A stretch of DNA of 64,000 nucleotides from an uncultured Sulfurospirillum sp. GTDB lineage: Bacteria; Campylobacterota; Campylobacteria; Campylobacterales; QNZT01. The stretch is taken from assembly GCA_964573205.1 (NCBI GenBank), contig CAZNIT010000026.1, positions 1 to 64,000 on the forward strand, written 5' to 3'. How positions within the stretch are numbered: position 1 is the first letter of the stretch; each line of letters starts with the position of its first letter. Shown piece by piece: positions 3,001-12,000 of this stretch. Made by a program: the position numbers.

Positions 3001-6000
3001 TGCGGTCGTATTTGCCGTTATTATATTGTGTATAATCTTGTTATTTTGACCGTAAACTCTTATGCCGCCGTTTTCGCCGTCGTTTGCAACGCTTACATCT
3101 TGACCGTTTTCGATGATGGTATTGTCCGAAATTGTAACGACTGAAGCACTGTTGTAGCTATCTATACCGTAAGCGCTTGAATTTTCGATTCTATTGTTTT
3201 CGATTAAAATATTCCCTCCGCTACTAAATCCCGTCGTTATCGCATCGCCTTTTGGTAAGTTCGAAGCTTTGTAAAAGTCGTTTTTATAGATGAATGAATT
3301 GTTACCGCTACAAATTGCCGTATGATAAATATGTGCAAAATAGTTATGTGTTATAGCGACTACGGAACTATTTTCTTGAAAGATACCGTATTTTACCCCA
3401 AGAGTAAGTGCCGGAGCGCTTGCGTCCGCATTAACGCCGATAAAGTTGTCGGCGATATAGATATTGTTTCCGCTCCTAATCAAAATAGCCGCCATTTCGT
3501 CATCGCTTGTATCGTCGCCTAAATAAGAGGCGTTTGTGATCGAGAGATTCGTTATTTCCGTATCGTCGGCATCTATGACAAATACTCCCTCTCTGGGAAT
3601 TAGATAATTTGTAAGAGTAGTTCCGTTATTCGTAAACATATCATTGGTATCTATTTGAAGTTCGGGATTGAAAAAAGTACTTAAAACAACTTCGTCCGAG
3701 CTATTTTCTATCCCATCTGCACCGGTACCGACGCTAAACCCTCCATGAGCGCTACTTCCTGGATTTGCATCCCAAAAAGATCCGTCGCTTTTAAAAGCCG
3801 TACCGTTTATTGCCGTTGCGGTGTCGGTAATGACCGGTAGAGGAGAGTTTAATGTGATATTCCACCAAGAAGGAGCGTTTTTAATTGTCGATGGTACGAA
3901 ACGCATAATGTTTCGATCGCTTATCGCGTTTGCGTTTTGGATAAATTGCCTAAATGCTCCTTGTGAACTTTTTGCGTTTACAAGATCGTCATCTTTATCG
4001 TTCGTATGAGTGACTACATTGAACGAAAAACCAAAATCGATTCCCGTAACGTCCGTAACGTTTATATCTACAATTGCGATATGTTCGGCCGTTGTAATAT
4101 TTGAAGGATCATCGGAAATTCCCGCAATTTTACCGCCGTAGCAGGTACCGGCGGTCGTAAGTGTTATTGTAGAGCCGGTTGTGTCATCACATAGACCACC
4201 CTTTGGACCGTATGTCTGTTCCGCCCAAACGTCGGATATCGTGCCCGAAGAAGTATATGGTTTGTATGGTGGTAAAGTTGTAGAATCCACTACGACATAG
4301 TATCTTCCCGCCGCTAAAGAGTTAAAACCGTATTCTCCGTTTCCCAAGACATCCGTATTTGTGGAGGAGATCAATGTATCGTTTGAATCTATTAAGTTGT
4401 CGCCGTCATCAAGAAACAGATATATTTTAGTCCCGCTTTTTGCCACTTGATCGCCTAAAGCGTCGTTAAAGTTCATATCGCCGTCGCTTACGCCGTCTCC
4501 CGAGATATCCTCGAAAACAGTTCCGGATATGGATAGGGCGTAAAGTTGATTCAAAGAGAGAAAAAGAGTAAAGAGTATAAAGATTTTTTTTATAGAGTGC
4601 ATTGTTGTTCTCCGATCGATGACAAATCAATTCATAAGAGTAATATCGGCTTAATGTAAAGAAAGTTTAGTCAAAAGTTTTATTAGAGGATAATTATTTT
4701 ACAATCAGTTGCTCTATTTGAAGTATGAAATCAGGATTTTCGTTTAGATACAATATGCCCGAAAAGACGGTGATAACGATAAAAATGATAAAAAATATTT
4801 TTACTCTACTATATGGTCTTTCCCCTTTTATAGTACCGTTTCTCGCATTTATCGCAAAGCGGTACTCTTTATCTTTAAATTTAAAATGAGCCGTCCATAC
4901 GGGCAATAAAATATACTTGAAACTATTTTGATCATGATATATCTGTATGTATGATATCTTTTGATGATCGCCGCCTATTTTCATTCTAACGGCGTTTGTC
5001 AATTCGTATTCCATATATTTTTTAGCATACTCAAATCCCTCATCAAGTGCTACGGTGTAAGTCTCACTCTCGAAACCGCTTAAATATCTTTCATCGTAGG
5101 GGATCAAATTTTCTAGATCCCAAGGCTTTAAAGTGTCTGCGAGTTTTCTCGGAAGAGTTTTAGTCGCCCCTATCAACACATCGTCAAAATGGCGTTTGAT
5201 CTCTCCGGATACGGGTTGCCATCTGATCTTCGGCTCTAAATCTTCTACGATCTGTTCTCTACCGTCAATAAAAACTCTTCTGCTTACTCTTTGGTAGTAT
5301 GTATCTCCGCGGTAACCTTGAAAATGAGTAGTCGTCATTGAATCGTATGTCCAGTATGGAAGGTATAGACCTTCAAATTTTGAATCCGTTTTTGTATATT
5401 TTTTAAGTTCTGACGGTGCAAACCATAATGAACCTACCCAATTTTTAAATATCTCTTTAGCTTCTTTCTGATTGATTTTAAAAGGTAGTAGAGATTCTGG
5501 AGACAGAGGCATAAATATATCCAGATTCGTAACGATAGGAGTGTTACAGTAGGGACATCTGGTACTTCGTATATGAGGGGTGAGTTTGAAATTTGCGGCA
5601 CACACAGGACACTTTATCTCTTTTGGAGCTTTTATGTCAAAGCGTGGTGAGTTTTGGAGTTTATGTATTGTCTCTTCAAGAGAGTGTTCGTAAATAGGAA
5701 TTTTTGGCGGATAAAGATAATTTACCCATCCGCAATATTCACATTTTAATGCACTTGTATCAGGAGAAAATACCAGTGACGCACCGCATTTCTTACAAGG
5801 GAATGATTTTTGTTTAAAATGCGATTTCTCGCCGATTTTTGTAAATTCCTTCATTTACTCTTACAGCGGCGGAGGAGTGAGCATATTAAATAGTGTTTCG
5901 ATCTCTTCTATATTCTTGGCTTTTTGCCAATTTTCCATTCCGGTACTCCACATTAGGGTGGATGAGTTGATACCCCTTTTTTTTATCAGCTCTTCTATTT

Positions 6001-9000: not shown

Positions 9001-12000
9001 GATCATAGCGTTTCGCTTTTGCCATTGCCGTCCTTCCTAAAGATTAAAGAGTGCCTGAAAGGAAACAGCACCGAGCGTTCCCAAAATGAGTAAAAAACCG
9101 ATAAACCTATATAGTGCCGAATGCATACTTACTCCGTTTTTAATCTACATAAAGATAAAATTCCTTCATTGATTATACACAAGTTAATGTTAAGGAAAAA
9201 TTATGTTTGAAAATATGGATAAAGATTTCGTTTTGCACAGTTACGGACGAAATTATGTCGAGTTCGTAAAAGCCCGAGGCGCTAAAATATATGACGCCGA
9301 GGGTCATGAGTATATCGATTTTACTTCCGGCATAGGAGTCGTAAGCGTAGGTCATGCAAATGAGCGAGTAAAAGATGCCATATGCGATCAGGCGTCGAAG
9401 ATCATTCATATTTCCAACCTTTATCTCATACCTCCGCAAGCCGAGCTTGCAAAGTCTCTTGTTACCAAAAGCGGCTTTGATGCCAGATGCTTTTTCGCAA
9501 ACAGCGGCGCAGAGGCGAATGAAGGAGCTATTAAAATCGCCAGAAAGTACGGAGAGGAGGGGGGATTGCCCAAGCGTTACAAGGTAATTACGCTCAAGCA
9601 CTCGTTTCACGGAAGAACGATCTCCACTCTAAAAGCTACCGGACAAGAGAGTATGCATAACTACTTCGGTCCCTTTCCCGACGGGTTTGTTTATGCCGAG
9701 GATATAGATCAAGTCGAGTCTTTGCTCGATGATCGTACGGTTGCCGTTATGATCGAGCTTGTGCAAGGAGAGGGCGGGGTGGAGCCTCAGGATAAACAAA
9801 AGGTGCTCTCTTTGGCAAAAACACTTAAGCGAAAGGATATTCTTTTGATCGTGGACGAAGTTCAAACCGGCATATACAGAACTGGAGAGTTGCTTGCTTC
9901 AAACCTCTATGAAATCGAGCCCGATATAGTCACGCTCGCAAAAGGGCTTGGAAACGGAGTTCCCATCGGTGTCGTTATGACTCGTTTAAAAGATATCTTT
10001 TCGCCCGGAGATCACGGTTCGACCTTTGGGGGAAACTATCTTGTGACCAGAGCCGCGTTGGAAGTGGTCGATATCCTTTGTGAGTATAAAGATAGCGGTT
10101 TGTTGGATGAGTTTATGCTCTATTTTGAAAAGGAGCTCAAACTCTTGGTGAAAGAGTATCCTCACATCGTTGAAAAAGAGGTCGGGCTCGGTTTGATGAG
10201 AGGTCTTCGTATAAAAAGCGCCGACTTGTTAAATAGCGTCATCGACAATGCGTTCGAAGAAAAAGTTTTGGTTTTAAAAGCGGGAAGAAACACACTTCGT
10301 TTTCTTCCTCCGTTAACCATTTCAAAAGAGGAAGTCGATGAGGGATTCAAAAGATTAAGATCGGCTTTCGATAAGATCGGAGCCTAAAGAGTGCGAAAAT
10401 TTAGCGACTATATGAGCGAGTGGCTATACAAAAGCGAGGGTTACTATACGAGTTTTCGCTCGATCGGCAAAGACGGTGATTTTTATACGGCCGTTAGTTC
10501 GAGTATGTTTTTCGGCGGTTCTATCGCAAAAAGAGTCATTTCGGTCATAGAGGAGGGGTTTTTACCCGAAGATTCGCTGATCGTGGAGGTTGGTGCTCAT
10601 AAAGGTTATCTGCTTGCCGATATGGTACAGTTTATTTACAGTTTAAGACCGGATCTTTTGAAAAGTTTGAGATTCGCCGTAGTTGAGCCGTTTGAACAAA
10701 ATAGAGTAGCTCAAAAGAATTACTTTAAAGATTCATTCGGCGATGCGGTAAAATTTGAGATATATGAGGATTTTAAAAATCTTAAAAATGAGAGCGCTTT
10801 TGTTGTGGCAAACGAGATTTTTGACGCCTTTTCGTGCGAGCTTGTCAAAGACGAGAAGATGCTATATGTAAAAAACGATGAATTTCTTTTTGAAAAAATG
10901 GATGAATTTACCAAAAGGATAGTCAAAAAGTACTCAATTTCAAAAGGAGAAGTCGCAAGAGGTTACGAAGAGTTTGCGACAACTCTTTTTGATACGTTTA
11001 AAAGATATGAGTTTGTCTCTTTTGATTACGGGGATCTTCGAAAAAGAGAAGACTTTTCTATACGAATTTACCATAAACATCAAACGATTCCCTTTTTTGC
11101 GTTGACTGATTTTGTCGAAGATAGTGCTCAAAAGATAGAAGATATCTCTTTGGAAGAGCTTTTTAAAAAAAGCGATATAACTTATGATGTTCATTTCGAT
11201 CATTTGATCGATGCTTTCAAAAAAAGCGGCGCGATTTTAGTAGAGTTCAAAACACAACTTGCTATGCTTGTAGAGTTCGGGATTATCGAGCTTTTGGAAC
11301 TTCTTCAAAAAAATACGGATGAAAAGAGTTATATGAGTGAGCTAAATCGTGCTAAATTGCTGATAGATCCGGCATTTATGGGTGAGAGATTCAAAGGGGT
11401 GATATTTAGGAAGACGGGGTGAGAAGTTTATTTTTAGTCGCTCTTTTGACTTTGAGTCTATCTTGTGACAAGGTGAACGGCTGGAACTATCTTCATGAAT
11501 GCGTTAACAAGAGCGATATAAATAAAACCTCTAAAGCTTGTAAAATATATGACATCAATTCCGCCACGAAAGCCGGAATAACTCCTCTTCATATAGCGGT
11601 AAAAAACAGAGATTTGAAAATGGTGATTTTTTTACTAGATAGCGGTGCGGATATAGATGCGCAAGATGTAAACGGTTTGGCTCCTCTTCATTATGCTATT
11701 GGACAAAAGCGGATAAAAATTGTAAAATATCTCGTTAAAAGAGGTGCCGACATCGGGTTGGCGAATAATTACGGTATAACACCGCTTCATCAGGCGGCTT
11801 ACGGCGGAAGAGTTGAGATCGTAGAGTTTTTACTGATGAACGGGGCGGATGTTTTTGCAAAAAACGATAACAATTCAACGCCTTACGATCTTGCGAAAGC
11901 GAAAGGAAAAATCGGCGTTAGCCGATTGTTAAAAGCATATATGGGAGAAAAGAGGGATGCAAATAACGGTAAACGGACAAAAAAAGACAATTAGTGACGA

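Follow-up and report, generated by a model that had tools for sequence, protein, structure and literature searches.

The soluble SPFH protein YdjI of Bacillus subtilis is anchored, or recruited, by the proteins YdjG and YdjH, and is itself needed for the formation of PspA foci (PMC8581546; bioRxiv 10.64898/2026.02.06.704340). Firmicutes also carry a tightly linked gene pair, xpaC-telA. In an uncultured Sulfurospirillum sp. (Campylobacterota) we find relatives of both sets in a single operon, on the minus strand of a stretch of 64,000 nucleotides (nt) (NCBI GenBank assembly GCA_964573205.1, contig CAZNIT010000026.1, positions 1 to 64,000). We refer to this whole stretch as the window. The operon encodes an XpaC-family protein, a TelA-family protein, a soluble SPFH protein and a membrane protein with two zinc ribbons (the ZnR protein). 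An open reading frame (ORF) of 29 amino acids (aa) directly upstream of xpaC also belongs to the unit, which makes it a five-gene operon. Both halves consist of known families; what appears to be new is their combination, the micropeptide, and the GYF domain and polyproline tail at the C-terminus of the SPFH protein. By analogy with the described systems we propose, with a probability of about 0.55, that this chromosomal, vertically inherited operon forms a scaffold beneath the inner membrane, at its cytoplasmic face, which would maintain or repair the membrane under envelope stress.

The B. subtilis genes form the set pspA-ydjGHI, also named pspA-samGHI. Loss of SamI leaves SamG–SamH signalling unbalanced (bioRxiv 10.64898/2026.02.06.704340), and YdjG has been described as containing two zinc ribbons, a YpeB-related domain and a transmembrane (TM) segment (Ravi et al. 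2024; PMC11237479). As in B. subtilis, the window operon carries the gene for a soluble SPFH protein of the Band_7_1 type beside the gene for a protein that has two zinc ribbons and ends in a C-terminal TM helix; the central region of the window protein may be YpeB-like as well. The sequence homology was established through an Enterococcus intermediate. An Enterococcus gallinarum record holds, side by side, a Band_7_1 protein with a double zinc ribbon, a TFIIB zinc-ribbon protein and a TPM protein, that is, a YdjI/YdjG/YdjH set. The zinc-ribbon protein of this triad aligns with the window ZnR protein at E=3e-29, colinear over aa 20-367, and the Band_7_1 protein aligns with the window SPFH protein at E=1e-11. 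Hence, the two genes in the 3' half of the operon make up a pair of the YdjI/YdjG (SamI/SamG) type, as an earlier reading of the window (the original prediction, made without database searches) had suggested. The window operon differs from the B. subtilis set in several ways. It lacks PspA and the TPM-domain protein YdjH/SamH, its SPFH gene comes before its ZnR gene, and it is joined to XpaC, TelA and the micropeptide. YdjI ends in a zinc ribbon, whereas the window SPFH protein ends in a GYF_2 domain and a polyproline tail.

The Firmicute pair (xpaC-yaaN; known from B. subtilis, Listeria as lmo1966-67, and Enterococcus faecium) has the same Pfam families, the same gene order and the same tight linkage as the pair in the window. 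In the window, however, the pair is preceded by a 29-aa TM peptide and continues into the SPFH and ZnR genes in one operon, the host is Gram-negative, and TelA belongs to a highly conserved subfamily (49-60% identity across classes). Listeria telA mutants are cited as more nisin-sensitive in PMC12791056, and Iyer et al. (2021; PMC7824862) place TelA among the "components forming sub-membrane structures". In E. faecium, deletion of xpaC lowers the daptomycin minimum inhibitory concentration 8-fold and relocates anionic-phospholipid microdomains, but only if telA is intact (PMC6811118). From this epistasis it would follow that XpaC restrains or directs TelA, and that TelA acts on the organisation of membrane lipids. 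We know of no established mechanism for either protein.

TelA-family proteins, thought to form sub-membrane structures, are also encoded by the plasmid kilA locus (KlaA/TelA with KlaB and KlaC) and by ter clusters. These plasmid proteins are 27-30% identical to the window TelA and reside on conjugative plasmids, whereas the window unit is chromosomal, appears to be vertically inherited, and has no TerB, TerC, TerD or vWA partners. HflK/C-FtsH and flotillin/YqiK-NfeD share the SPFH fold with the window SPFH protein (PF01145 matched), but the latter has neither a TM segment or hairpin nor a protease or NfeD partner. By inference, it depends on a separate tail-anchored receptor. We found no description of a TelA/XpaC-SPFH-ZnR unit in the searchable literature, which does not include the 2012 comparative-genomics survey of TelA by Anantharaman, Iyer and Aravind; that the neighbourhood is mentioned there has a chance of roughly one in three. 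The two large comparative surveys of the phage shock protein system do not mention TelA. To this extent the unit is undescribed, as had been claimed.

The operon and its distribution

The elements of the operon, in the order of transcription, are as follows.

9172-9177, minus strand: candidate -10 box TATAAT, read from the sequence, 46 nt upstream of the ATG of the small ORF
9037-9126, minus strand: small ORF of 29 aa, MHSALYRFIGFLLILGTLGAVSFQALFNL, a single hydrophobic helix, absent from public gene calls
8180-9025, minus strand: XpaC-family membrane protein, 281 aa (PF10112, hydropathy, multiple alignment)
6953-8176, minus strand: TelA-family protein, 407 aa (PF05816, no TM segment, AlphaFold2 model)
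5861-6931, minus strand: soluble SPFH protein, 356 aa, Band_7_1 with a C-terminal GYF_2 domain and a PPP tail (PF13421, PF14237)
4694-5854, minus strand: tail-anchored YdjG/SamG-like protein, 386 aa (two zinc ribbons, an alpha+beta region possibly of the YpeB/PepSY type, TM helix at the C-terminus)

Gaps of 3, 21 and 6 nt lie between the four larger genes, and each ATG has a purine-rich Shine-Dalgarno-like motif on its 5' side. These coordinates and spacings agree exactly with the original prediction. Its four-gene extent was correct for the genes it named and incomplete as a description of the operon, because the small ORF was missed. This ORF, whose reading frame differs from that of xpaC, stops 11 nt short of the xpaC start codon, and its own ATG is preceded by a GGAG motif at a distance of 5 nt. 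The TATAAT sequence lies within the divergent intergenic region of 177 nt. In a consensus scan for promoters and terminators the counts stayed within the shuffle expectation, so the sequence is a candidate only.

To see how far the arrangement extends we scanned one genome per GTDB species with the ZnR alignment, which gave at least 589 confirmed relatives. The best 80 of these are the loci analysed here. Loci were typed by tblastn with the four window proteins, together with the available flank, and 67 of the 80 were informative. We relied on tblastn for presence and absence because the ORF caller produced opposite-strand shadow ORFs in high-GC loci (clusters c10, c11 and c22). The informative loci fall into four states.

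XpaC-TelA-SPFH-ZnR, identical order and strand: 48/67 loci
TelA-SPFH-ZnR, XpaC cut off or undetected: 2/67 loci
SPFH-ZnR only: 11/67 loci
ZnR only: 6/67 loci

The four-gene set is therefore not a one-off juxtaposition, which had been named as the outcome that would count against the unit, but is shared by several phyla and classes. It is found in 7/7 loci from Campylobacterota, 4/4 from Thiotrichaceae (a tally that takes in one locus with XpaC lost at a contig end), 12/12 from Granulosicoccaceae, 23/23 from Rhodobacterales, in Geminicoccus, and in two unclassified Proteobacteria (L025 and L063). One of the TelA-SPFH-ZnR loci belongs to Competibacteraceae. Excluding the closest relative, identity to the window proteins is 49-60% for TelA, 43-60% for SPFH, 36-50% for ZnR and 23-37% for XpaC.

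The SPFH-ZnR dyad is kept in 61/67 loci. It stands without TelA in Methylococcales, Bacteroidota, Planctomycetota, Acidobacteriota and two unclassified Gammaproteobacteria, and also occurs in Tsukamurella, in Comamonas and on one Vibrio plasmid. Since the dyad is retained without TelA in other phyla, it is the conserved core of the unit, a point that the original prediction overlooked. Judged by sequence, the dyad is ancient and shares its origin with the YdjI/YdjG (SamI/SamG) pair of Firmicutes. Its partners vary: TPM in Firmicutes, with PspA in addition in Bacillus, and XpaC-TelA in many Proteobacteria and Campylobacterota. Beside the TelA-linked dyad of these last two groups, neither PspA nor a TPM protein was detected.

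A rough neighbour-joining tree of the ZnR protein (without bootstrap) follows taxonomy, which argues for vertical inheritance. Clades with four genes are interspersed with clades that have the dyad only. Hence, the link to TelA is either old and was lost repeatedly, or it was gained more than once. Either way, the linkage is maintained by selection. It even persists in Rhodobacterales in which further genes have been inserted into the unit. A gene for a DUF2927 lipoprotein lies between telA and the SPFH gene in Rhodobacterales and in Paracoccus, where it overlaps telA by 4 nt, and a cytochrome b561 gene lies between the SPFH and ZnR genes in some Rhodobacterales and Paracoccus loci (L037-L078 and L087 for these insertions; e.g., L047 5810-6775, L049 7460-7999 and L087 5714-6742). 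The products of both genes are possible periplasmic or membrane partners. One Bacteroidales metagenome-assembled genome (L032 6845-9077) has two tandem ZnR paralogues after the SPFH gene.

The micropeptide is conserved over part of this range. A profile built from seven peptides was searched in the window and the 80 loci at E<1e-3, and matched in the window and in 20/80 loci, six of which had served as seeds. The matching ORF is always on the operon strand and directly upstream of xpaC. The carriers are Campylobacterota, Thiotrichaceae and Granulosicoccaceae; Rhodobacterales gave just two weak matches in the profile search. The common motif is approximately +xx(I/F)(I/F)GFxxLLxxxG(L/M)(L/V)S(C/L/F)Q. 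Some copies contain a lipobox-like LLSC, and the window copy has F at this position. The peptide matches no Pfam family and is not among the public gene calls of the contig.

The products of the operon

Of the five products, TelA and SPFH are soluble; the other three are anchored in the membrane, the peptide by one TM segment, XpaC by four and the ZnR protein by its tail. The family assignments made earlier for TelA, XpaC and SPFH all stand well above the Pfam cut-offs. XpaC matches PF10112 (6.4e-24, 85.4 bits against a cut-off of 29.8). By hydropathy, its N-terminus has four hydrophobic segments at about aa 17-41, 45-64, 88-107 and 110-131, and the helical C-terminal domain of about 150 aa is predicted to be cytoplasmic by the positive-inside rule. 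TelA, encoded directly downstream of xpaC, matches PF05816 (1.4e-108, 363.4 bits against a cut-off of 30) with aa 76-402 covering profile positions 4-331 of 332, and has no TM segment by hydropathy.

In the AlphaFold2 model (confidence score pLDDT 66.9), the structured part of TelA is entirely alpha-helical and contains three helices of unusual length (aa 155-233, 237-349 and 355-406), whereas the acidic N-terminus is disordered. Matches to ClyA, AhlB, AhlC, NheA and MakA recurred but were not significant. Sequence searches of the PDB found no relative of TelA or XpaC, and NCBIfam has no family for any of the four larger proteins. The idea that XpaC is a divergent paralogue of TelA was rejected, with an hhalign probability of 0.4%.

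The SPFH protein matches PF13421 Band_7_1 at profile positions 1-210 of 211 (8.2e-102, 339.7 bits) and PF14237 GYF_2 (6.3e-15, 55 bits). GYF_2 is the former DUF4339, the name under which the domain had been assigned before. No hydrophobic segment of its own was found by hydropathy. Its parts are the following.

6227-6856, minus strand: Band_7_1 SPFH domain (aa 26-235; Pfam)
5903-6049, minus strand: GYF_2 domain (aa 295-343; Pfam)
5864-5878, minus strand: C-terminal TPPPL tail, directly after the GYF domain

A tail of the PPP(L/I/P)P type directly follows GYF_2 in about 57 of the 60 SPFH orthologues that we extracted, with or without TelA, and three have a degenerate tail (IPPSL/PPAIP). GYF domains bind proline-rich peptides. 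From the sequences, it is plausible that GYF domain and tail brace the subunits of an SPFH oligomer head to tail, or that they act in autoinhibition. A sequence search of the PDB with the SPFH protein reached a single relative, a GYF domain from a Myxococcus gliding-motility protein (7z3c). In homologues, the C-terminal module is a double zinc ribbon (Enterococcus) or HTH_17 (Comamonas); hence the C-terminal adaptor of the SPFH protein is variable.

For the ZnR protein, Pfam gives sub-threshold zinc-ribbon matches only, and a sequence search of the PDB finds only generic zinc ribbons. An alignment of 18 homologues shows eight invariant cysteines arranged as two CxxC...CxxC pairs, followed by a strongly conserved region of about 230 residues and a C-terminal TM segment, which bears out the double zinc-ribbon membrane protein that had been read from the sequence.

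5732-5797, minus strand: zinc ribbon 1 (C20, C23, C38, C41), invariant in the alignment
5546-5611, minus strand: zinc ribbon 2 (C82, C85, C100, C103), invariant in the alignment
4820-5497, minus strand: putative YpeB/PepSY-like region (aa ~120-345) of helix and long beta-hairpin units, from the model
4739-4801, minus strand: C-terminal TM helix (aa ~352-372), from the model and hydropathy

YpeB/PepSY folds are the best match to the model of this protein, though a weak one. Because of the zinc ribbons, the entire N-terminal part would be cytoplasmic. In public records, homologues carry names such as "primosomal protein N' (replication factor Y)", "RNA polymerase subunit RPC12/RpoP" and "ribosomal protein S27AE", evidently derived from the zinc ribbons alone.

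Genomic surroundings

The window belongs to a metagenome contig of 110,985 bp (ENA ERZ27262694) that has its closest relatives among Campylobacterota. In the window, the operon is flanked by a cluster of aminotransferase, methyltransferase, ankyrin and ThiS genes and by the gene for a beta-helix protein of 1,630 aa; elsewhere the window encodes RsmD, HemD, YebC, FlgN and a Crp-type protein. Other lineages have other neighbours: RluB, D-Tyr-tRNA deacylase, nitroreductase and peptide ABC transporters in Rhodobacterales, an AddB-like helicase and a thiopurine S-methyltransferase (TPMT) in Granulosicoccaceae, and HypD/HypE, PurD or deformylase in others. The flanks are mostly housekeeping and lineage-specific. 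The accessory neighbourhood that had been noted around the operon belongs to this contig rather than to the unit as such, and the suggestion that homologous operons might fall in defence islands was not borne out, with one exception. This is a Vibrio coralliilyticus plasmid (NZ_CP048695.1; L082 980-7041) on which an SPFH-GYF/ZnR dyad without TelA divergently adjoins two genes, one encoding a TIR-domain protein and the other a "TRAFs-binding domain" protein. No other neighbourhood looked defence-like.

The beta-helix gene (PF13229; 1-4601, minus strand) has the same orientation as the operon and begins 92 nt past the stop codon of the ZnR gene. A sequence scan found no terminator-like site between the two genes; therefore, the beta-helix gene may be co-transcribed with the operon on this contig. 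It is not conserved beside the operon in the other loci. Further along the window, an ORF of 896 aa without Pfam match (12196-14886, minus strand) lies beside a PelB-like gene for a tetratricopeptide-repeat/beta-barrel protein (15125-18121). In 10 Granulosicoccaceae loci (L006, L008-L012, L017-L020; e.g., L012 3912-4595) a TPMT gene (PF05724, 5e-67) lies directly upstream of micropeptide, xpaC and telA, on the same strand.

Plasmids and phages rarely carry the unit. The ZnR gene was found in 12 of 72,556 plasmid records, and the six best-matching (Paracoccus, Pseudorhodobacter) are replicons of 1.5-2.2 Mb. TelA of the operon type (>50% identity) occurs among the plasmids only on one such large replicon, to which a Paracoccus one can be added by position. 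The phage collections yielded only 7-8 matching records, with 22-29% identity; these are of Firmicute-like type, and most of them are short fragments from viromes. PHROGs has a family for TelA only (PHROG 5890, "tellurite resistance", "moron"). Searches of PADLOC-DB 2.0 gave no significant match for any of the four larger proteins, the best being E=0.007-0.04 over about 22 zinc-ribbon residues and one match to the coiled coil of DndD (E=0.015).

What the operon may do

In the scaffold that we propose, the ZnR protein would recruit the soluble SPFH protein to the membrane, as its relative YdjG does together with YdjH in B. subtilis. The SPFH protein would oligomerise, and may be cross-braced by the GYF domain of one subunit binding the polyproline tail of its neighbour. 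XpaC, perhaps together with the micropeptide, would anchor and restrain TelA, in analogy to E. faecium, and TelA, a long helical-bundle protein, would be the effector layer acting on lipid-domain organisation or membrane integrity. Under envelope stress, the two sub-complexes (ZnR-SPFH and XpaC-TelA) would cooperate as a sub-membrane scaffold. Of the two functions first suggested for the operon, a composite membrane-stress or an anti-phage system, membrane stress is thus the best reading by inference.

The same SPFH-ZnR core occurs with PspA and TPM in Bacillus and with TelA and XpaC here, which makes TelA a candidate effector in the place of PspA. One could go further and argue that TelA is the effector of a PspA-independent membrane repair. 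In that case, the SamG-like receptor and a ring of SPFH proteins would mark or corral a damaged patch, and XpaC and the micropeptide would restrain TelA, which would coat or remodel the membrane. TelA would then correspond in function to PspA/ESCRT-III. It might also be a bundle of the ClyA kind, able to switch from a soluble to a membrane-bound state and back, an idea with which the non-significant ClyA-type matches are compatible. This more specific proposal is only tentative.

Three points weigh against the scaffold interpretation. The proposed mechanism relies on analogy with distant Firmicute proteins, which are about 24% identical. Since the 80 loci were chosen by score from at least 589 confirmed relatives, the figure of 75% (48 plus 2 of 67 informative loci) is biased towards relatives of the query, and the proportions do not estimate the global frequencies. 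Finally, PspA could be encoded elsewhere in these genomes: no match was found among the operon products (Pfam), in agreement with the original prediction, or among ten other ORFs scanned in the window, so that the check covers part of 64 kb.

The names of the families suggest a different function, a specific resistance to the chalcogen oxyanions tellurite and selenite, in which TelA and XpaC would handle the anion or the damage it causes and SPFH-ZnR would be a helper. Membership in the TelA family and the "tellurite resistance" label of PHROG 5890 fit this view, as does the TPMT gene upstream of the operon. Enzymes of the TPMT family methylate tellurium and selenium. The TPMT link is, however, confined to one family, no reductase, transporter or metal-binding Ter protein is encoded in any of the loci, and the SPFH-ZnR core exists without TelA in many phyla. 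Moreover, according to PMC12791056, the phenotypes of Gram-positive TelA concern cell-envelope antibiotics and the effect on tellurite is just 2-fold. Hence, we consider a dedicated oxyanion resistance unlikely. The SPFH protein itself invites another interpretation. Membrane-anchored SPFH families form cages around proteases, and since the SPFH domain is confirmed by Pfam, the protein could form a cage that regulates a membrane protease or another client (compare HflK/C-FtsH and stomatin-NfeD), with TelA and XpaC as client or adaptor. Yet the protein has no TM segment of its own, and where neighbouring genes were scanned or clustered, neither a protease nor an NfeD gene adjoined the unit. In Bacillus, the Band_7_1/YdjI type recruits PspA, not a protease (PMC8581546). 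A protease cage does not seem likely to us either.

An anti-phage or abortive-infection system was part of the first interpretation of this operon. The literature associates phage inhibition with TelA/KlaA and with the ter cluster, TelA is found on some jumbo phages (PMC7824862) and has a PHROG family, and the dyad on the Vibrio plasmid adjoins a TIR-domain gene. Several findings speak against this part of the interpretation: the lack of significant PADLOC matches, the housekeeping and lineage-dependent flanks, a ZnR tree that tracks taxonomy, the near absence of the ZnR gene and of operon-type TelA from plasmids other than very large replicons (the KlaA type of other plasmids being distant), and phage matches that are distant, Firmicute-like and mostly fragmentary. 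We therefore regard a role in phage defence as very unlikely. It could finally be that two independent two-gene modules came to lie side by side by chance and are uncoupled. The halves do exist alone, XpaC-TelA in Firmicutes and SPFH-ZnR in 11 of our loci. But the identical order in 48 loci, from Campylobacterota, three gammaproteobacterial and two alphaproteobacterial groups, the short gaps of 3-21 nt, and a linkage that survives the insertion of DUF2927 and cytochrome b561 genes make such a coincidence extremely improbable.

TelA and XpaC occur widely and bear on the susceptibility of Gram-positive pathogens to nisin and daptomycin. Their stable fusion with a SamI/SamG-type SPFH module in one operon makes a strong case, through guilt by association, that TelA works with an SPFH scaffold on the inner side of the membrane. 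The vague label of "toxic anion resistance" can thereby be replaced with a testable model, and culturable carriers of the unit include Paracoccus and Ruegeria. The SPFH-ZnR dyad, which has been studied only in B. subtilis, turns out to be a pan-bacterial core with interchangeable sets of partners.

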